Program-made: the position numbers and the translations under genes
IMG/VR virus record: IMGVR_UViG_2585427970_000001
DNA from: a virus
Taxonomy: Duplodnaviria > Heunggongvirae > Uroviricota > Caudoviricetes
DNA: 64,000 nucleotides
Direction: 5' to 3' (one strand)
Shown here: in pieces, positions 1,052 through 41,509 of the stretch
How the letters are laid out: every line of letters begins with the position of its first letter
Position numbering within the stretch: the first letter of the stretch is position 1
Notes under the pieces: model-generated
Databases searched by the model: none
What the model saw: the letters and a program-made list of their open reading frames with translations, nothing else
Told to the model about the DNA's origin: nothing

Positions 1052-4000
1052 TTAATATACGATCTGGTCTACATGATCACCAAAATCATCATCGTCGTCG
1101 TCATCATCGCCACCATCTACTGCTGGCCAATCAACAAACCAGCCAGCGTAAAGATGCAGCGTTCGGAGAACATCACTTGCGGGAGCATCAAGGGTGTTAA
1201 CGAATCCCATATAGCTATTGGGATTTGCCCCAGCTATGGCTTCAGCGATCATGTCCTCGGTAATGTCACCGAGATAATGCTTAAACGCCCGGAAACTTCT
1301 TCATTATCATCAAATTCGATAATGGCATCTCCGCCTAATGGCGCTGCGATTTTAATCTGCATTATTTAGCTCCTTTGCCACACCTAATAACAGTTCCAGC
1401 AATCCGTCACCATTCATCAGTGATGCGGCAGCGGCCTCTTTGTCATGATACAACTGAAGAGCCATAGAGAATACTTCCGTTGCTGACGTTTTGGAAATAG
1501 TCGGTGATTTCTGCCGAATTTTCCCGGAGTTACTCACTGAGGCTGGCGGGTATACCTTCGCCATATAAATATTACTCAATCGAGATCTGAAGCACCATTC
1601 AGGCTTGCCACGCCCACCGATATTAACGAAAGATGGCTTATCCCCTTCAACATTGGCCTTCAGGAATGACCGGGCTTTCTCTAACAAACCAGGGTTACTG
1701 TACTCAAGATGATGACCCAGCTCGTGCCACAGTGCATTTGCATTTTCATCGTGCAAATCGACAGCAACAACACCATTAAGATTTGCATACGCCCTACCCT
1801 TGTGGTGAATTACCCTTGATAAGGTTGATATTTTCCCGCCGGTCAGGCGATAAATATCAGCAAGTTCCTTGCGCAGGTCTATTCCACCATTCTGTCCAGC
1901 GCGGGCTTCTTCCACTTCTTCCGTGATAAAAGAGTCGGCCCACTCAAGAGCTTTTTCTTCTGATACAGATGAGTTGGCGATCGCACTGTTCATGGCAGAT
2001 AACACTTTCTCGTAGACCGAATCCATACTTCGCTGATTCATTTGCCAGCGTGTCTGCGGGTTATATGAGAATCGCTTAAGTAGTTGGTCAAGCTGCTCAA
2101 GTTCTTCTTCACTGACATACTTTTTAGCCTCACCAATAATGCCAGGGAGAATATTGCCGTTAGGATTAAACGCTCGCGAAAGGAAGAGTTTCAGCGCCCC
2201 ATGCCCTCCGATGCTTCAATATCACCAATAACCGGTTAACAATGGCCGCACTCTTCGGATTAGCATCCGCCAACGCTCTGGCTACGATTTGCAGGACGAT
2301 ACGACCTCACGCTGCATATCAGTCCTGATCTCATCAATAAACTCTGGCGTTATGCCGTGCTCTTTAAGGATATCCCGGCCTTCCGCCGTTACCCCATCGA
2401 TATCACCGACATGTTTATTAACACGACTTTGCAATGCCTTAAATGCCTTCAGAATTCCACGGGAATCATCCGCTTTACTAACGGCCTTCCTGAATGCTGG
2501 CAAGAAGTCTGAGTTAACCTCATTTTGTTGATCGGCCCACTGAATGGAGGCTTCTTTCATCTCGTCCAGAGTCAGATCACCCAACGCGGTATGGTCTGTG
2601 AATATGAGCGACAACCTCTGAACCATTTCTGCCAATGGTGATGCCGAATGCGCCGCGCTAAGGAATGCTTTCACCCTGGTTGGGCGAATGGAAAACCAGT
2701 CAATAGCTGGTGGCATATCTCCGTTTTGTATCGCCTGCGCTATCTCATCAAAGCCATCGCGCCCAAGGGAAGATGCGTGATTTAACAATCCGCGAAGTAA
2801 CGAATTGCTGATACCGAATAATCGGCACCATTTATTCACGTCGGCAACAGGCATTCGAACAAAATGCGCAAGCACTTGTACAAGCTGTTCATCCTGGGGA
2901 TCTGTACGGGAAAGCAGCCTGATCAGATGAATAATGTCTTTGATGCCGGATGCCCGATGTAATAGCAAGCTGGTATATGGAGCAACACCGTTGTAACTAC
3001 CGCCGGAAGCTGACTCGAAAAGACCGCCGGATATCCCTTGCATACCTTCGTTTTCCAGTTCCTGAGATACCTGGCGAAGGATATCCTGTAACGACACATC
3101 GCCGCCGCCAAACATATCCCGAGCGCCTGGCCCTGATGCTGTAACTCATCATTGATACGTTGCGCCATCAATTTAAAGGCGGTGGCCATACGCTTCGCGC
3201 TACGGTTATTCGCGACGATGAACAACGCGAGTGCTTTCACTTCCGGGGCCGTTTCGCTGAACATATCCCCCCTGAGCAATAACATCGGTAATATGCTGGC
3301 CTGACTCCTTCGATTGCCTTACCAGGTCTACCGCATCTTTCAATGCCGCCAGCGCCTTTTTATCGAGGCTATCCGCTGTCTCAATGCCATCAACAATAGT
3401 TGTCACAGCCTGCTTGTGCGCTTCTCCTGATAAAGCCTGCATCTGGACAAAATCATTGGCTGCCGCATTAAGCGCCGTCAGAACATTACGCATATCCGGA
3501 TCAGGTTCTTCTGCAACCATCCTTACTAGGCGCGCATCCTTATATGCCTTGGCAAAGATCGCGTTTTGTATACGGTCTACAAGTTGCCGTGTTGGTCGCC
3601 CATCTTCAGTTACAAGGCCAGCCGCCTGTGTGGCACCAACTTGCGTCATAAATCCGCGAATAAACGCGTCATTACTGCGGCTAAGCAGATCTCCGCTTTC
3701 TGACGGATTAAACAGCGCCATCATCGCCGGTGTTATGCTGTCGGCATCAACAAAAGCCTTTTCACTGGCTGCCATTTCCTGAAGATCAGAAATATTTGAG
3801 TCCTTGGCAAACTGAACGCGGTCAACCTTCGTTAACCGGCGGCGCACCAGTACCGGAGCCGTCATTGATTCAACCTTTTCAGTACGTATGCCGAATTCGG
3901 TCGCATGTTCAATCAGGTACTCCCGATACCGATCCGCATTACCGTCCTGATAGGCTTTAATGATCCCCATGGTACGTCCATTACCTGACTCAACTGCATT

Positions 4001-4336
4001 GTCCTCACCAATTATCGGTGCGCCATGGCTGGATAATCCGGAATCGGTAAGCTGAGCAGGCCGCAAATCTTTGGATATCTGGTTAACCTGAAGAAGGCTG
4101 GATGCGCGGGTCCGGTCGCGCGGCTGAAGTTCCTGGGGATAGTCAGGATTAATTTTCCCATCCAGAGTATTGGATACCAAAATAGCTGAGGCATCGACGA
4201 TATCAAACGCTGTTTTTACCTCGTCTCCCTTCGCTGTCACCACATACGAAACCCGCCCATAATCGGGCAGGTTCTTTAGCAGCTCGATCAGCGTTTCTAT
4301 GCTGGTGGCCATTACCACCTGATCGCTTAAGCTCAT
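1052..4336 (-). pseudogene. Large DdrB-like virion-associated protein gene (about 1090 codons) broken into several reading-frame pieces
   Basis: Collinear minus-strand ORFs 3206..4336, 2282..3115, 1352..2041, 1052..1252 plus a protein-like out-of-frame bridge 3117..3285; position downstream of darA/ddrA as in P1; HELGHH motif in the 1352..2041 piece. Confidence 0.4.
1080..1106 (-). repeat. GAT/GAC trinucleotide tract encoding poly-Asp (DDDDDDDD)
   Basis: atcatcatcgtcgtcgtcatcatcgcc on plus strand; ORF 1052..1252 contains GGDDDDDDDDFGD. Confidence 0.7.
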
Positions 4337-7966: not shown

Positions 7967-8578
7967 TTAATTTCCTGCTTTCAGTTGCTTAAGACGGCGT
8001 TTGAGTTCGCCATTTCGGGCCTTTTCGTTATTGAGTCGGCCTGTCTCCTTATCCAGCTTCGCCCGCAAATCAGTGATCTGCTGTTGATTGAAAGACACCG
8101 AGTTCTGCGCTGATTTATAAGCGGCAACCACCTGAACATTCCGCTGTTTTGCCTCTTGCAGGCGCTGAAAGTTGGATTTTACTGCCGGTTTCTTGTCTAC
8201 CGGATTGGCAACACGTTTCGCTTTGGCGATCAGTGATTTCTGGAATTTTGCGGAGTTTTTGCGGGCCGCTTGCCCCATGACGGTACCAAGCGTCTTGATA
8301 TCCGGCGACTGAGCGTTAGGAATAGCTTTTCCATTCAGCTTCACAGACGATATATCGCCAGTATCGTTTACCTGTATGGCAAGAATTTGTCCATCGTTAA
8401 GAACCAGCTTTGCGGTTTTAACTTTAACGCCATCTTTCGTTGTTGCGCGGTTGCTGGAGTCAACCTCAATTACCGTAACACCGGTTTTATTGATCGCCGC
8501 GATAAGGGATTTCAGCCCCTTTTCATTAACCTGGTCAAAATCGACCGTTGCATACTTATTTTTCGTCATCTGACACAT
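7967..8578 (-). CDS. hdf: Hdf-like protein (homolog of DarA fragment)
   Basis: 203 aa; shares sequence block (..KNSAKFQ..) with the downstream DarA-like protein. Confidence 0.5.
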   Translation of the reverse strand: MCQMTKNKYATVDFDQVNEKGLKSLIAAINKTGVTVIEVDSSNRATTKDGVKVKTAKLVLNDGQILAIQVNDTGDISSVKLNGKAIPNAQSPDIKTLGTVMGQAARKNSAKFQKSLIAKAKRVANPVDKKPAVKSNFQRLQEAKQRNVQVVAAYKSAQNSVSFNQQQITDLRAKLDKETGRLNNEKARNGELKRRLKQLKAGN

Positions 8579-8999
8579 CCTGTGCGAGATTTATTACGTA
8601 ACTTCTGCGGATTTGCTGAGTAACAGGGAAAATCCGATACAACGGGTTAATGAACGAGTCGCCATGCGTAACCATGACGTTGAAATGCCACAGTCGCTCT
8701 CCTTTACCCATATATTCAGTGGGTATGTACAACCATTCACTGTTTTCGCCCTGTTCAGCCGACGTCAAACAACGTTGTTCGCCTTCAATCACTGTCGTCG
8801 GCTTCTGAACATCGCGGATCCAATATCTGACCGTTGCGCCGCGCAAAAACGGGAATTTAGACCGGTATTTGAACGGCACCCGGATGAAACCCGGTTTAAT
8901 TTCCACATCACCAAGTTCTAAATGCGTGATGTCCTTGCGTTTTAGCAAATAGCGATCGGCTAAGGCTAACGCAAGAACGCATACACCCCAGCCAATCAT
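8556..8999 (-). CDS. Hypothetical protein with N-terminal hydrophobic segment (possible LydB-like lysis regulator)
   Basis: 147 aa ORF overlapping stop of upstream holin-like gene; assignment by position. Confidence 0.3.
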   Translation of the reverse strand: MIGWGVCVLALALADRYLLKRKDITHLELGDVEIKPGFIRVPFKYRSKFPFLRGATVRYWIRDVQKPTTVIEGEQRCLTSAEQGENSEWLYIPTEYMGKGERLWHFNVMVTHGDSFINPLYRIFPVTQQIRRSYVINLAQDVSDDEK

Positions 9000-9325
9000 T
9001 TCCCGCCTCCCTTTTTCACCAAACTTGTAAGAACATTCAGAATGCTATCGATATTCACTCGTTTCATCCCTGAAATCACCTCATGACCGTTATTGCTGGC
9101 TATCGTTACCATTAAGTACGTAATTGATAACTCCCAGCCCTCGTGTTGCCCCAATAGGTACGCCACCGCGCCAGCTGTCACTGCAACAAAGATCTCCGTA
9201 ACCAATCCCAACAAATTGCCAGACTGGCGACCGTCTCGGACATCCATCAGGAACGTGCCTATCCCACCAATTACTGAAAGCAGGAGCGCAATAGCAACTG
9301 GAGCTAATTCCTGTGTGTCAAGCAC
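8996..9325 (-). CDS. Holin-like small membrane protein (LydA-like)
   Basis: 109 aa, 2-3 predicted hydrophobic helices, charged C-terminus KKGGGK. Confidence 0.5.
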   Translation of the reverse strand: MLDTQELAPVAIALLLSVIGGIGTFLMDVRDGRQSGNLLGLVTEIFVAVTAGAVAYLLGQHEGWELSITYLMVTIASNNGHEVISGMKRVNIDSILNVLTSLVKKGGGK

Positions 9326-9392
9326 AAGTTCCCTCCTACGTTGTCAGGAGGTAATGGTATGCAAAGTAACTTCTCAACCGGTCATTTGTTGC

Positions 9393-9674
9393 TTAAGAGG
9401 CATTTCTATTGAGGTACGAATCGATAATCCTTTGTAACCGTTCAAGAATGAGCCTGTTATTGATGCTGCAAATAATAGTCACGCAAGTCTGAAGACTTTC
9501 ATCCATACCCTTATATTCCGCGAAATACATGCCTATAAAGCCTGCAAGTACGGCAGCAATACACTCGGCCAGCAATTGCCTGCATGACACTTCGTAACGT
9601 TTTTCACGAACCCCATTCAGAAACGAATGCACCCCGCCAAGGATGGAAAGGAGCATTATTGTGAAATCAAACAT
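9393..9674 (-). CDS. Holin-like small membrane protein, paralog of 8996..9325
   Basis: 93 aa, similar hydrophobic helix layout, first gene of minus-strand operon. Confidence 0.4.
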   Translation of the reverse strand: MFDFTIMLLSILGGVHSFLNGVREKRYEVSCRQLLAECIAAVLAGFIGMYFAEYKGMDESLQTCVTIICSINNRLILERLQRIIDSYLNRNAS

Positions 9675-9801: not shown

Positions 9802-10362
9802 ATGCTAATAGGCTATATACGCGTATCAACAAATGAACAAAACACTGCTTTACAACGAAATGCCCTTGAAAGCGCAGGATGTGAGCTAATTTTTGAGGAC
9901 AAGGCGAGCGGCAAAAAGGCTGAGCGCCCTGGGTTAAAAAAGGTACTCCGTATGCTTTCCAGAGGTGATACCCTGGTCGTATGGAAGTTAGACCGTCTTG
10001 GGCGCAGCATGCGTCACTTAGTTGTGCTGGTGGAAGAGCTGCGTGACAGAGGCATTAACTTCCGGAGTCTCACTGACTCCATCGACACCAGTACACCAAT
10101 GGGGCGCTTTTTCTTTCACGTAATGGGGGCGCTGGCAGAAATGGAACGTGAGCTTATCGTTGAACGTACACGCGCTGGACTTGATGCAGCTCGCGCAGAA
10201 GGTCGTATAGGTGGGCGTCGACCTAAATACCAAGAAGAAACATGGCAGCAAATGCGGCGATTGCTGGAGAAGGGCATCCCCCGTAAGCAGGTTGCAATCA
10301 TCTATGATGTGGCTGTTTCCACGCTTTATAAGAAGTTTCCGGCGTCATCCTTTCAATCCTAA
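9802..10362 (+). CDS. cin: Serine recombinase DNA invertase (Cin/Gin/Pin/Hin family)
   Basis: MLIGYIRVSTNEQNTALQRNAL..DTLVVWKLDRLGRSMRHL..GRFFFHVMGALAEMERELIVERT; near-identical motif pattern to Gin/Cin. Confidence 0.9.
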   Translation: MLIGYIRVSTNEQNTALQRNALESAGCELIFEDKASGKKAERPGLKKVLRMLSRGDTLVVWKLDRLGRSMRHLVVLVEELRDRGINFRSLTDSIDTSTPMGRFFFHVMGALAEMERELIVERTRAGLDAARAEGRIGGRRPKYQEETWQQMRRLLEKGIPRKQVAIIYDVAVSTLYKKFPASSFQS

Positions 10363-23913: not shown

Positions 23914-24453
23914 CTACCACCAACTGCTAGCTTTCTTCTCTCTAGCTTTTCCTTCGCTTTGCAGTAAATCTTTACTTCCTGTAGAAATATTTCTATTTGC
24001 ATCAGCCTCAGACTGAATTACATCTGTCTTAGCTGCTCTCTCCTTCAACTCCTGCTCTATAAAATCGTTTTCTCGCTGGACACGAGCCGCTTTTGCTTGC
24101 AGTTCGAGTTTCATGCTTTCGAGTTGCAGCTTGCGAAGCTCATCCTCATAAGCTTGATCTCGCTTCTTGTCATTTGCTAGCTCGGCTTCTCGTTTCGCTC
24201 TACGTTCATTTTCTGCAGCAACACGCTGTTTTTCGCGTGCAGCAGCGGCAGATGCTGCTTTTTCTCTTCTAATACGTTCAGCTTGTGCTTGTTGGCGAAT
24301 AAGTTCTTTTCTGGCATCCTCAGCTTGCTGCTCTTTAGCTCGCCCTTCATTTTCCGCTTGAGCAATAGCAGCAATTTGACTTTGCAACGAGTTAGCCAAG
24401 GCAGTGCCTACACTAAACGTAGAAAAGATTAGAAATAAAATAATTTTATTCAT
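23914..24453 (-). CDS. Secreted coiled-coil protein (signal peptide, charged repeats)
   Basis: MNKIILFLIFSTFSVGTALA signal peptide; E/K/R/A-rich heptad-like region. Confidence 0.45.
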   Translation of the reverse strand: MNKIILFLIFSTFSVGTALANSLQSQIAAIAQAENEGRAKEQQAEDARKELIRQQAQAERIRREKAASAAAAREKQRVAAENERRAKREAELANDKKRDQAYEDELRKLQLESMKLELQAKAARVQRENDFIEQELKERAAKTDVIQSEADANRNISTGSKDLLQSEGKAREKKASSWW

Positions 24454-24456
24454 AAA

Positions 24457-24978
24457 TTATTTCTTTTCTGGACAAGTAGCATTTGGCTGAATTCGAGTTT
24501 CATTATCTTTAGTTGAAATAAGCACAGCAAGCCCCGTTGTAAACTGGCATGCTTTACCAACTTGAGTTGAAGTGAACACCTTAGTTCCTTCTTTATAAGT
24601 CAGTGAAACACCTTCAACAATTGTTTTATCACTAACCAAAGAACCAGCCGCTGCACCAAGAGCCGCACCACCAGTACCGCCAGCTACAGCACCCAGTGTC
24701 GATGTGCCTTTAACATTATAACCGGCAACGCCCCCAGCAACAGCTCCCAGTACCGCACCAAATGTCTGTGCCGCTTCTTTATTAGCTTTATTATCAACTT
24801 TCACTTTAGCTGGAAGCACAGAGATAATATTGACTGTCTTTGTTTCCTGCTTCGAATTCAATTGAGCGGTATCATAAACATCGGCAGCATAATCAGCACC
24901 GCTAGATTGACACCCAGAAAGAAGAATTGCAGATACAACAAGAGCGCATAAAGTATACTTTTTAGACATAAGAATCAT
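24457..24978 (-). CDS. Lipoprotein with glycine-zipper segment
   Basis: Lipobox LLSGC; GAVLGAVAGGVAGY..GAVAGGTGGAALGAAAG. Confidence 0.5.
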   Translation of the reverse strand: MILMSKKYTLCALVVSAILLSGCQSSGADYAADVYDTAQLNSKQETKTVNIISVLPAKVKVDNKANKEAAQTFGAVLGAVAGGVAGYNVKGTSTLGAVAGGTGGAALGAAAGSLVSDKTIVEGVSLTYKEGTKVFTSTQVGKACQFTTGLAVLISTKDNETRIQPNATCPEKK

Positions 24979-38435: not shown

Positions 38436-38658
38436 GATGTGTGCTGGAGGGATGATGCAGGACCAGAATGTGCGATAGAGGGAAGTCGCATTGAATTATG
38501 TGCTGTGGAGGGATCGCTGGTATCAAATATGTGTGCTGGAGGGAAAGTCTGGGCAAACTGCGGGGCGTCCCCCTCCAGCGCACATCAAAAACAGGAAATT
38601 GGACAAGCCTTCCCGGCAGCACACATTTTTTTAATGCAGCTTCCCTCCAGCACACACT
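38436..38658. repeat. incA-type iterons (RepA binding repeats)
   Basis: About seven 19-bp GATGTGTGCTGGAGGGAAA-like repeats in both orientations. Confidence 0.7.
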
Positions 38659-39518
38659 TATTCTGGGAGTTTCAGCTTTGGATTGCGAGAATGGACGATT
38701 ACAAAACTTTCCCGGCCTTTCTTCTCAATTGAACAGTCGAGATAGCCGATTGTTTTAAGCTGTTCTATCGCTTTCTTAATGATACGGTTTTGCTCGCCAA
38801 CAGCTGACTGCAAAGCCAGGCGCTCACGGATTCGGGCGAAAGATAGCGGCAACGGATTCTGCGGAAGGCTTTCGATGAAAGTGTAAATGGCTTGTGCAGC
38901 TTCTTTCTTCGGAAGGGCACGCAAGGCGTGGTGTTGCAACAGAACGCGATAATCAAGCTGGAACAGCTCCCACAGCTTCGAATCAGCCTCCAGCTCTATC
39001 AGATCAAGGTCAGCATCAAAACGACCGACCTTTAGCAGACCAGTCTGATAGCCGCCTTTAGCATCTTTTCCGCGCTTAAAAGCGATACCCTTGTTACGCA
39101 AGCGTCCAAGTGATTCATGAATGGTTAAACGCAGTTTCGCATCCAGACGTTTTGAGGGGAAACCACAGGCTTTAGCGAATTCCTGAAACGATAACTGGAT
39201 GGTGTTTGAGGACAAGCCGTATTTGCTGAACGCGTAGATGACACCGATCCACGTTTTGAAATCAGTATCCATATCGAGTCGAGGACCGGTGATTTTAATA
39301 TCATCGTAACCCTCGGCTTTAGCTATCTCCAGCTGGGAAAACGCTTTGGTGGCATCAATCTCTTTACTTTCTCCTTTGCTCTTTGATGGCTTCGGAACGA
39401 ATACCCCCAAGCGCATCAGCGCTACAGGCTGCACAGTGTTGTTTGAATTAACTGTTAGTTCTTTTGCCTTACTTTCAATGTCTGCGTAAAGAATATCGGA
39501 GATAAATGATTGATTCAT
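38658..39518 (-). CDS. repA: Plasmid replication initiator RepA
   Basis: 286 aa; flanked by iteron arrays on both sides. Confidence 0.85.
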   Translation of the reverse strand: MNQSFISDILYADIESKAKELTVNSNNTVQPVALMRLGVFVPKPSKSKGESKEIDATKAFSQLEIAKAEGYDDIKITGPRLDMDTDFKTWIGVIYAFSKYGLSSNTIQLSFQEFAKACGFPSKRLDAKLRLTIHESLGRLRNKGIAFKRGKDAKGGYQTGLLKVGRFDADLDLIELEADSKLWELFQLDYRVLLQHHALRALPKKEAAQAIYTFIESLPQNPLPLSFARIRERLALQSAVGEQNRIIKKAIEQLKTIGYLDCSIEKKGRESFVIVHSRNPKLKLPE

Positions 39519-39800: not shown

Positions 39801-39802
39801 AA

Positions 39803-39825
39803 ACCGGCCAACATAGCCGGTTGGA
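39803..39825 (-). terminator. Rho-independent terminator
   Basis: ccggcc..gccgg stem with T5 on minus strand after 39836 stop. Confidence 0.4.
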
Positions 39826-39835
39826 AGGAAGGGTA

Positions 39836-40228
39836 TTATTCTACGCTTTCGATAAGAAGACCATGTTCATAACATTTAAGCTCATCGCCTTCGTACAGGA
39901 ATTGGTATCCAATACCACCATTTTCATGGACATTAGGGAATAACTCATAACTCACTGAAGAGCAAATTACACCAATGCAGCGATCAACGCCTTCTCGTTC
40001 TTCAGTGCTGAAAAAATCCTCTTCGGTAAGGACATGAGTACATTGCTCATCAGCATAGGTCGGAAATACATGCTCGATGCAATCCGGGTGTTTTAAACCA
40101 AGCTGATCGGCAAGCTCGAAAGCATGACGGTATTGTTCAGATCCTGGCTTGCCAACAGTGATGTGCTCAATTTTGTAGATTGAAGTTGCTTTGTTGATAG
40201 TTTGCTTTACTGTTACTTTATCAGACAT
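39836..40228 (-). CDS. Hypothetical protein
   Basis: 130 aa ORF. Confidence 0.4.
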   Translation of the reverse strand: MSDKVTVKQTINKATSIYKIEHITVGKPGSEQYRHAFELADQLGLKHPDCIEHVFPTYADEQCTHVLTEEDFFSTEEREGVDRCIGVICSSVSYELFPNVHENGGIGYQFLYEGDELKCYEHGLLIESVE

Positions 40229-40239
40229 AAAAATCCCTT

Positions 40240-40572
40240 TTAGTTACCTCTGATAGCGCGGTTGTAATCATTAACGTTGCGATTCTTCCTGTTAATCCCC
40301 ATCAGCATCGTTTCTGTATCGAGGATATACGCTGGCAGATCATCAAAATATTCACTGCTAAACTCTGGCATCCTGCACATAAATGCACTTTTGGGGGCAG
40401 GGTGGTTAACCTTTGTCGGCGTCGGCGTTAAATTCGCTGATCGACTGCCGGAGCAACCGCTGAGTGTCAGCAGGAATGCGCTGGCGAACATTACCCGCCG
40501 CAACCAGTTGTTTCTGAACTTCAGCTTTTCGTTCCATTTGCCTGTCAGCATATTTGGCTTGTTCTGATTCAT
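40240..40572 (-). CDS. o-spanin-like lipoprotein overlapping the upstream gene
   Basis: Lipobox LLTLSGC; Pro/Thr-rich TPTPTKVNHPAP; probable start at internal Met (MFASAFLL) near 40491. Confidence 0.45.
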   Translation of the reverse strand: MNQNKPNMLTGKWNEKLKFRNNWLRRVMFASAFLLTLSGCSGSRSANLTPTPTKVNHPAPKSAFMCRMPEFSSEYFDDLPAYILDTETMLMGINRKNRNVNDYNRAIRGN

Positions 40573-40855
40573 TTTTCACTTCCTGGCTGTGAAAATGTTG
40601 CTCTGCTTTGTTCATCGTCTCAATGGTCTGGTTAAGATCCATTATTGACTTATCACGTTCCTTAACAGCCTGATCAAGACTGCCAATTTTCTCCATGGCT
40701 TGCTTTAGCTGATGACGTTCCCATGCAAACCCAGCACCAACAAGTGCGCAAATCAGAACAAGAACACCAGTAGCAGCAAGTTTCTCCTTCAAAGACAAAG
40801 CTGTTTTTAACGTAGAAAAGAATGACATGTCTTCCTCCTGAAGAAAAATTATCAA
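40406..40855 (-). CDS. i-spanin-like protein (N-terminal TM helix plus coiled coil)
   Basis: 149 aa; TM segment VLVLICALVGAGFAW then charged helical region; 3' end overlapped out of frame by lipoprotein gene. Confidence 0.45.
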   Translation of the reverse strand: MIIFLQEEDMSFFSTLKTALSLKEKLAATGVLVLICALVGAGFAWERHQLKQAMEKIGSLDQAVKERDKSIMDLNQTIETMNKAEQHFHSQEVKNESEQAKYADRQMERKAEVQKQLVAAGNVRQRIPADTQRLLRQSISEFNADADKG

Positions 40856-40867
40856 TGAAGTCCTTTG

Positions 40868-41404
40868 TTACTGTGCCGCTTTGTTTAATTCATCAAGAAC
40901 AGAAGCAGGAACCAAAGCGGCAACTGCGCTGGCTGTGCTGACCTTATTTGCTGATGCTTCCGCAAGCGCGGTACCGATAGCATGGTTATAAGCAGTTATG
41001 GCTACGTTGGCGCTTTCATTCGCTCGTTCATACTGCTGTTGTAACGCAGTTGTGGGCGCTGTTGTCTGGTTGAAAACAACCCCAAACTGTTCAGTTGCTA
41101 CTTTCAGAGATTCAATTTGCTCTTCTGTTAGTGCTGGTGGGGGAGTGGCAGTGCCGCCGCCTGAACCAGAGCCTGACGAGCTTCCTGAGCCAGTGTTAAG
41201 GGTCTGGTTAATCTCCCCCATAGCAGCGACTAAACTTGATGTATTAAGCGCGTTAACAGCGTCCTCAAGCGATTTAGTAATATTCACATCACCAATGGCA
41301 ATAGAGATCGGCAGTTCTGAAACTTCTCGCTCATTAGCACGGCAGTAAACATCCCAACCAATATCGAGTTGAAGCAGCATTGACAGATCTGCATAACCAG
41401 CCAA
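40868..41404 (-). CDS. Hypothetical protein; frame stays open upstream to IS boundary (possible 5' truncation)
   Basis: Track start is TTG at 41404; 21 further in-frame sense codons run to the IS629 end at 41468. Confidence 0.35.
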   Translation of the reverse strand: MAGYADLSMLLQLDIGWDVYCRANEREVSELPISIAIGDVNITKSLEDAVNALNTSSLVAAMGEINQTLNTGSGSSSGSGSGGGTATPPPALTEEQIESLKVATEQFGVVFNQTTAPTTALQQQYERANESANVAITAYNHAIGTALAEASANKVSTASAVAALVPASVLDELNKAAQ

Positions 41405-41509
41405 CAGGTCCGCGTGCTTAGTTGCCAGTTCTCCAATGTTCGTTAAGCCGGTTGTGGTTGTTCTGATTGAACCGCCCCGGGTTTCCTGGAGAGTGTTTTA
41501 TCTGTGAAC

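Follow-up and report, generated by a model that had tools for sequence, protein, structure and literature searches.

The overlapping ppfA/mlp genes of a P1-like phage-plasmid as a predicted two-component spanin

Can a pair of overlapping genes that lies beside a plasmid replicon, apart from the holin-like genes, encode the spanin of a phage? The question is raised by the IMG/VR virus record IMGVR_UViG_2585427970_000001 (Caudoviricetes), whose stretch of 64,000 nucleotides (nt), taken as a whole, is referred to here as the window. An earlier reading of these letters (the original prediction) had proposed that two out-of-frame genes at 40240-40855 form the overlapped arrangement of Rz/Rz1-type lysis genes, with one subunit in the inner membrane (i-spanin) and a lipoprotein subunit in the outer membrane (o-spanin). 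Both open reading frames (ORFs) are indeed found there on the minus strand, with 167 nt shared between them. By its sequence the window is a P1-like IncY-type phage-plasmid, and by identity and gene order the pair is ppfA/mlp of bacteriophage P1, the predicted overlapped spanin of P1 and P7, which has already been catalogued; there is nothing new in the identity of the genes. Our analysis makes it probable that ppfA and mlp encode the two-component spanin of P1. The topology signals of both proteins, the selection acting on the genes, their conserved geometry and the similarity of Mlp to the P2 protein LysC all agree with an overlapped i-spanin/o-spanin pair, in line with the predicted function given by RefSeq, the SpaninDataBase and Bednarek et al. 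2022.

The gene identities are established by comparison with P1. Across 901 nt surrounding ppfA/mlp, the window is 98.6% identical to the DNA of phage P1 and 98-99% identical to P7, RCS47, SJ46 and other P1-like phages. At the protein level, the window PpfA is 99% identical to P1 PpfA (YP_006532), with two substitutions (I45M and E128Q), and the window Mlp is 97% identical to P1 Mlp (YP_006531), with three (S7N, V32A and S108R). The gene order of P1, in which upfB and ppfA/mlp are followed by upfA, oriR and repA, is found with identical neighbours in the window, so that high identity is combined with the syntenic place between upfB and upfA/repA. In the P1 RefSeq record, ppfA stands for 'possible periplasmic function' and mlp for 'membrane lipoprotein precursor', the product of the latter being named 'Rz-like spanin'. 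P1 appears as 'ovl' in the SpaninDataBase (Kongari et al. 2018, PMC6139136, Additional file 2), where gp064 is the i-spanin and gp063 the o-spanin.

Features of the PpfA and Mlp proteins

The predicted i-spanin gene ppfA extends over 40406-40828 on the minus strand and encodes 140 amino acids (aa), as assigned from P1 PpfA, PHROG 89 and SpaninDataBase gp064. The longest mechanically derived ORF, 40406-40855, begins with a TTG codon and corresponds to the 149-aa protein of the original prediction, a length that did not hold because this TTG start is unsupported. A Shine-Dalgarno sequence, AGGAGG (40834-40839, minus strand), is located 5 nt before the ATG at 40828, the same site as given for P1 gp064 in the SpaninDataBase. 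This ATG is both the start annotated in P1 and a conserved Met in all relatives, and the nine codons upstream of it are unrelated in diverged loci. The ribosome-binding site, the P1 annotation and the conserved Met together indicate a ppfA product of 140 rather than 149 aa.

The N-terminal hydrophobic helix and the charged helical region that had been ascribed to this protein were both recovered. A single transmembrane helix is predicted at ppfA codons 17-36 (LAATGVLVLICALVGAGFAW; 40721-40780, minus strand) from Kyte-Doolittle hydropathy and the SpaninDataBase entry. The best 19-residue Kyte-Doolittle window, residues 17-35 (LAATGVLVLICALVGAGFA), has a mean of 2.35 and marks the sole hydrophobic stretch of the protein. 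The remainder comprises 104 residues, 35% of them charged and none of them a periplasmic Cys. An AlphaFold2 model built from an 18-sequence alignment places a helix at residues 13-110, a break at 111-119 and a second helix at 120-137, with moderate confidence (predicted local distance difference test (pLDDT) 70, predicted template modelling score (pTM) 0.27). In the SpaninDataBase, too, gp064 has 140 aa, of which 36 are assigned to the membrane part and 104 to the periplasmic part, with zero periplasmic Cys (PMC6139136). PpfA thus has the make-up of an i-spanin, namely that of a small type II inner-membrane protein with one N-terminal transmembrane helix and a mainly helical periplasmic domain. 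Its residues 21-140 match PHROG 89, 'Rz-like spanin', with an expect value (E) of 1.1e-25.

The predicted o-spanin gene mlp lies at 40240-40572 on the minus strand and encodes, from an ATG start, a precursor of 110 aa, as assigned from P1 Mlp, PHROG 30284 and SpaninDataBase gp063. A regular-expression search and inspection of the sequence located the lipobox L-S-G-C at Mlp residues 37-40 (40453-40464, minus strand), preceded by VMFASAFLLTL; the LLTLSGC lipobox of the original prediction is therefore present, and Cys40 with it. Cys40 is predicted to be the lipidated first residue of a mature protein of 71 aa. It is followed by Ser at the +2 position, from which the +2 rule predicts sorting to the outer membrane. 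Mlp accordingly shows the predicted properties of an o-spanin, namely those of a lipoprotein of small size with a lipobox and a signal for signal peptidase II, and with no Asp at +2. In the SpaninDataBase, gp063 is given as a 110-aa protein whose 39-aa signal carries the flag 'Too long signal sequence' and whose 71-aa mature part is followed in the entry by a count of one periplasmic Cys, and the LipoP cleavage site of P1 Mlp is placed at residue 39 (PMC6139136). The mature part had also been described as rich in Pro and Thr. This is true of the first ~25 residues, of which 11 of 25 are Pro, Thr or Ser, and not of the remainder, the whole mature part having 6 Pro and 5 Thr. A single-sequence AlphaFold2 model suggests a disordered segment at residues 38-85 and a helix at 86-108, and its low confidence (pLDDT 58.7) makes it a hint only. 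Full-length Mlp matches PHROG 30284, also 'Rz-like spanin', with E 1.4e-76, and phrog_456 with E 4e-5.

Beyond the Cys predicted to be lipidated, Mlp has a second one. Periplasmic Cys residues for homotypic intermolecular disulfides occur in 507 of 528 two-component spanin systems, which leads one to expect at least one such residue in the pair, and Mlp Cys66, for which a disulfide is predicted, is invariant in the family alignment. Cys40 is likewise invariant, both in the six-member Mlp family alignment and in all 80 of 80 IMG/VR loci. When the ORFs of the window were counted from stop to stop, 515 had 50 aa or more; two of these passed a crude filter for lipoprotein signals, and Mlp is one of them. 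The other is a 173-aa Gly/Ala-rich lipoprotein at 24457-24978 on the minus strand with the signal MILMSKKYTLCALVVSAILLSGC; it matches PHROG 1277, whose label 'DNA methyltransferase' looks wrong, and its gene is directly followed by one for a 179-aa secreted, highly charged helical protein (23914-24453, minus strand).

A probable link to a known spanin comes from comparison with the P2 o-spanin LysC. BLASTP aligned Mlp with LysC at E 4e-8 (single-pair statistics; 37% over 68 aa) and hhalign aligned the Mlp family profile with LysC at 87% (E 3.7e-6, 64 columns), with low-complexity and signal-peptide composition contributing to both scores. The best NCBIfam match of Mlp is NF038368, the P2 LysC model, which is also the best match for five of the six members of the Mlp family, in each case below its cut-off (best E 0.001). 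These alignments suggest that Mlp is probably a distant homologue of LysC, a protein of a lysis cassette. As to the i-spanin partner, the best NCBIfam match of PpfA is TIGR03495, the model of P2 LysB, again far below the cut-off, and judged by these comparisons PpfA is either diverged beyond recognition from LysB or unrelated to it.

Translation and conservation of the overlapping frame

The doubly coding overlap spans 167 nt (40406-40572, minus strand). The mlp gene is in the +1 frame of ppfA and, as originally predicted, continues past it, ending 166 nt beyond the ppfA stop. Spanin genes may be embedded, overlapping in +1 or adjacent, and the pair belongs to the overlapped class. To examine selection we compared the window with diverged loci from Cronobacter (L085), Salmonella (L086) and Klebsiella aerogenes (L087), in which PpfA is ~60% identical; each of the three has a lipobox-bearing +1 ORF of 109 codons in the equivalent place. 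Where mlp runs outside ppfA, the Nei-Gojobori ratio of nonsynonymous to synonymous differences (pN/pS) is 0.15-0.24 in the mlp frame, a sign of purifying selection, as against 1.4-2.4 in the two other frames, and the differences are concentrated at third codon positions. Nucleotide identity to the same relatives is 0.76-0.80 in the overlap and 0.60-0.61 in the ppfA-only part, a higher DNA conservation as expected for double coding.

The pair is also maintained on a broader scale. Among 80 P1-like loci from IMG/VR (L003-L082), the Mlp ORF is open in 80/80 and PpfA is intact in 79/80. In one of these loci, Mlp has 118 aa with its end replaced, resembling read-through into an insertion sequence (IS) end like that of the window; in another, ppfA is truncated at codon 66. 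More distant relatives were recovered by an exhaustive HMMER scan, namely P0102 (E 1e-21) and P0107 (E 2.5e-8), and in both a lipoprotein ORF again overlaps in +1 and has the lipobox, a second Cys within M-C-x-(M/L)-P and, towards its C-terminus, NxKNxxVNxYN. By locus, the overlapped geometry, lipobox, second Cys and NxKNxxVNxYN are kept in L085-L087 and, at a greater distance, in L089 and L092, which establishes the conservation of the arrangement. A decayed copy of the pair is found on the E. coli contigs that carry the 65% identical Mlp match P0007 (L083, at 3994-4330, and L084): of ppfA only the last ~50 codons are left, and mlp has a frameshift past residue ~60. This copy adjoins a different Rep/ParA/ParB module, with regulatory genes in place of upstream upfB, and as a decayed remnant it was left out of the selection analysis.

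It could be argued that the lipoprotein ORF is a chance, untranslated frame running within and beyond ppfA, given that gene callers usually miss mlp, the Prokaryotic Genome Annotation Pipeline (PGAP) and metagenome callers reporting a 46-aa C-terminal piece or nothing. The low pN/pS and third-position bias confined to the mlp frame, the intact ORF in every one of the 80 loci, the conserved Shine-Dalgarno sequence before the ATG, and the lipobox and second Cys conserved in distant relatives all speak against this explanation, which is refuted as far as sequence can show and to which we give practically no weight. That mlp is a real, translated gene, with a chance frame excluded, is well supported by this comparative evidence, and translation in both frames is inferred from selection.

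Less clear-cut is where translation of mlp begins. A Shine-Dalgarno sequence, AGGAAG (40579-40584, minus strand), lies within ppfA, 6 nt before the mlp ATG at 40572; the equivalent site reads AGGAGG in L085, L086 and L087, and AGGA(A/G)G before the upstream mlp ATG is kept in all lineages. Comparison with relatives points to a candidate alternative start at codon 24 (40501-40503, minus strand), 16 residues before Cys40, which is TTG in the window and ATG in L085, L086 and L087, and which aligns with Met1 of P2 LysC. No clear Shine-Dalgarno sequence was seen before this internal start. Mlp residues 2-23 are unconstrained, with 7 of 22 identical to the relatives whose PpfA is ~60% identical and a pN/pS above 1 in the mlp frame, yet this 23-residue N-terminal extension is always basic. 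Conceivably, P1-like phages might make two Mlp precursors, whose signals, of 39 aa in one and of a canonical 16 aa in the other, could lead to different kinetics of export or processing, a scheme that we consider doubtful. If true, dual mlp starts would offer a built-in means to tune or delay spanin maturation, which could be combined with sigma-70-driven expression beside the plasmid origin rather than with late-promoter control.

PGAP and other callers annotate only a 46- to 52-aa C-terminal fragment from an internal Met, as at 4304-4444 in L088 (NZ_CP122909), 3449-3589 in L085, 3431-3589 in L086 and 4467-4607 in L090, and in L087 mlp is not annotated at all. Such fragments are the source of PHROG 15803 ('lipoprotein', 46 aa). 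Mis-annotation of the o-spanin is thus systematic among P1-like plasmids, and as PGAP calls only the 46-aa C-terminal piece, thousands of enterobacterial phage-plasmids have their spanin content under-reported. The pair is the predicted spanin of a classic model phage, and beyond correct annotation the significance of the present assignment is small.

The search for PpfA relatives covered 50,697 phage records by tblastn and 1.84 billion representatives by HMMER. In the phage records, PpfA matched P1-like phages and Cronobacter phage JK004 only. The HMMER scan returned only 35 matches, of which the full-length ones either share the P1-like gene order (L089-L091) or lie on a contig of 1.2 kb (L092), and the remaining ones are fragments or repeats within long coiled-coil proteins.

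Genomic setting and competing explanations

Downstream of the pair lie upfA (39836-40228, minus strand), which encodes 130 aa and is of unknown function by both P1 annotation and PHROG 1453, and the plasmid replicon with repA (38658-39518). A terminator-like hairpin with a T-run just past upfA (39802-39822, minus strand), found by a consensus scan only, probably marks where the transcription unit ends. As expected, the window contains the lysis and inversion region of P1 (8556-10362), with lydB at 8556-8999, the holin gene lydA at 8996-9325, the holin-like gene lydC at 9393-9674 and the cin invertase gene at 9802-10362, followed by a tail-fibre gene. Both lydA and lydC match PHROG holin families, in accordance with the holin-like genes that had been placed at 8996-9674, apart from the pair. 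A motif scan of the window for the P1 endolysin Lyz gave no match; this motif-based test is a weak one, and we make no claim on lyz.

Several observations weigh against a spanin function of ppfA/mlp. The genes are ~31 kb away from lydA/lydB, adjoining the plasmid replicon and outside any lysis cassette. At 39 aa, the annotated signal peptide of Mlp is unusually long. Neither protein reaches any Pfam or NCBIfam cut-off, and PpfA has no detectable similarity to lambda Rz by BLASTP or to P2 LysB by BLASTP and hhalign. Among the 50,697 phage records and 1.84 billion representatives, no PpfA relative was found in the lysis cassette of another phage, and as the family was found in P1-like elements only, it is not independently associated with genes for endolysins or holins. 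Annotations of P1-like genomes may be part of the source of the PHROG labels, which would make this evidence partly circular. Upstream of the pair, the promoters annotated in the P1 record are predicted sigma-70 promoters only. A sigma-70 promoter scan of the minus strand upstream of ppfA in the window gave none above threshold, an empty result by which the promoters of the P1 record are neither supported nor refuted. Finally, Bednarek et al. 2022 (PMC9025707) state that the spanin function in P1 is without experimental verification, and in a genome-wide CRISPR interference (CRISPRi) study (PMC10695390) plaque formation was essentially intact on knock-down of either gene, with an efficiency of plating of ~0.2 for mlp and ~1.2 for ppfA.

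The last of these observations, a non-essential score for both genes (PMC10695390), would also fit a pair of spanin-like architecture that P1 can do without or that is redundant in it; ppfA/mlp would then add little to lysis, with the outer membrane breached mainly by shear in shaken cultures or by another P1 product. Consistent with such a pair, lysis of shaken laboratory cultures does not require spanins and the P1 pair is only predicted (PMC9025707), and ppfA/mlp lie apart from the late lysis operons. The strong purifying selection to which both genes are subject and retention of the pair across P1-like elements down to very low PpfA identity argue instead for a maintained function, and spanin defects are poorly detected by plaque assays and knock-downs. 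The phenotype of lambda Rz/Rz1 is reportedly conditional too. We therefore regard dispensability as improbable.

The position and promoters of the pair raise another explanation, in which Mlp is an envelope lipoprotein expressed from the prophage for lysogenic conversion, such as superinfection exclusion or envelope protection (cf. lambda Bor, T5 Llp and Cor), and PpfA is its membrane partner rather than part of a lysis device. The location of the genes beside the plasmid replication and partition module, the sigma-70 rather than late promoters predicted by the P1 annotators, and the failure of either protein to exceed the cut-off of any curated spanin model would all be in keeping with this. 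On the other side, Mlp aligns with P2 LysC, including the second Cys, and P2 lysC lies within a lysis cassette, whereas Pfam, PHROG and NCBIfam scans gave no match to Bor-like or other lipoprotein families. A +1 overlapped lipoprotein gene combined with a type II membrane protein is a hallmark of spanins, and such an overlapped architecture is not known for Bor, Llp or Cor. A role in lysogenic conversion is accordingly judged to be still less probable than dispensability.

The published record agrees with the spanin assignment, which we favour. Bednarek et al. 2022 (PMC9025707) describe ppfA/mlp as the P1 spanin genes, partially overlapping and in an operon unlinked to the other lysis genes, and credit their identification to Summer et al. 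2007, from predicted features. The Introduction of the same paper calls ppfA the o-spanin and mlp the i-spanin; in view of the lipobox in Mlp, the transmembrane helix in PpfA and the SpaninDataBase entry, these labels appear to have been swapped by a slip. The P1vir RNA-sequencing paper (PMC8201110) makes no mention of ppfA or mlp.

With ppfA/mlp as a spanin, complex formation, disulfide linkage, membrane fusion and a role in lysis are what we infer for the two proteins from better-studied systems. PpfA would insert into the inner membrane by its single N-terminal helix, with the helical domain of ~104 residues projecting into the periplasm. After export, the host lipoprotein pathway would lipidate Mlp at Cys40, and the Lol system would deliver it, in keeping with its Ser at +2, to the outer membrane's inner leaflet. 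If lambda Rz/Rz1 and T4 PseT.3/PseT.2 are taken as analogues, PpfA and Mlp may bind each other by their C-terminal parts and so bridge the periplasm through the peptidoglycan meshwork, and an Mlp-Mlp disulfide via the conserved Cys66 probably stabilises the complex. Once the holin LydA and the endolysin Lyz had destroyed the murein, the complexes would be free to move and change shape, and the inner and outer membranes could then be fused, which would remove the last barrier to phage release.

Upstream of the pair, the window carries an IS3-family element of 1313 bp (41467-42779) with 27-nt terminal inverted repeats and two minus-strand genes, orfA (42397-42723) and orfB (41510-42400); copies of 100% identity are common in E. 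coli. The element interrupts upfB, of which 178 of 281 codons remain (flank 40868-41467), and is directly abutted by a tRNA-Thr gene (42780-42855). Relative to plasmid NZ_CP122909, ~4.8 kb of P1-like backbone is absent beside the IS, comprising the 5' part of upfB, upfC, uhr, hrdC/rdgC and the dmt methyltransferase gene.

Comparison with known spanins

Membership of the known spanin sequence families was examined for both proteins. A Pfam scan of PpfA and Mlp gave no match to Rz (PF03245) or Rz1 (PF06085) even at E up to 1, the hits of PpfA being weak coiled-coil noise only. Neither protein falls in the lambda Rz/Rz1 sequence family: BLASTP gave E 0.37 against Rz and E 0.006 against Rz1, and the latter alignment spans the signal peptide and Pro-rich stretch of Mlp only. 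Nor is PpfA an i-spanin of the P2 LysB type (TIGR03495), its score being 19.5 bits against a cut-off of 92.75, with a BLASTP E of 61 and an hhalign probability of 1.4%. Mlp, at 14.3 bits against a cut-off of 27, lies outside the P2_Rz1 model NF038368.

In organisation, the P1 pair recalls P2 lysB/lysC. In both, the o-spanin gene is in the +1 frame, begins inside the i-spanin gene and ends past it, with an overlap of 146 nt and an extension of 145 nt in P2, and 167 and 166 nt for ppfA/mlp. LysC, like Mlp, has a signal peptide and lipobox region, a Pro-rich segment and a second Cys in a C-x-M-P motif. The differences are the 23-residue N-terminal extension of Mlp, which is absent from LysC, and the position of the genes, as lysB/lysC directly follow the holin, endolysin and lysA genes, whereas the P1 pair is not in a lysis cassette.

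Lambda Rz/Rz1 resemble PpfA/Mlp in that an inner-membrane protein of type II, whose periplasmic domain is helical, is combined with an outer-membrane lipoprotein that is small and Pro-rich and is read from the same DNA in the +1 frame. However, Rz1 is wholly embedded in Rz, whereas mlp extends beyond ppfA, and Rz/Rz1 form the final part of the lysis cassette. The cysteines are also distributed differently, with two periplasmic Cys in Rz and one in Rz1, as compared with none in PpfA and one in Mlp.

T4 PseT.3/PseT.2 differ from the P1 pair in that their genes do not overlap and their o-spanin has two essential Cys, as compared with one in Mlp. In other respects they run parallel to it. The T4 o-spanin is larger and has a predicted C-terminal helix, as may Mlp (helix 86-108, low confidence). 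In T4, as in P1, the i-spanin is without periplasmic Cys and the cysteines reside in the o-spanin, a common pattern of which T4 is a tested example. Furthermore, the T4 spanin genes stand apart from the holin and endolysin genes, and so provide a tested precedent for the separate location of ppfA/mlp.

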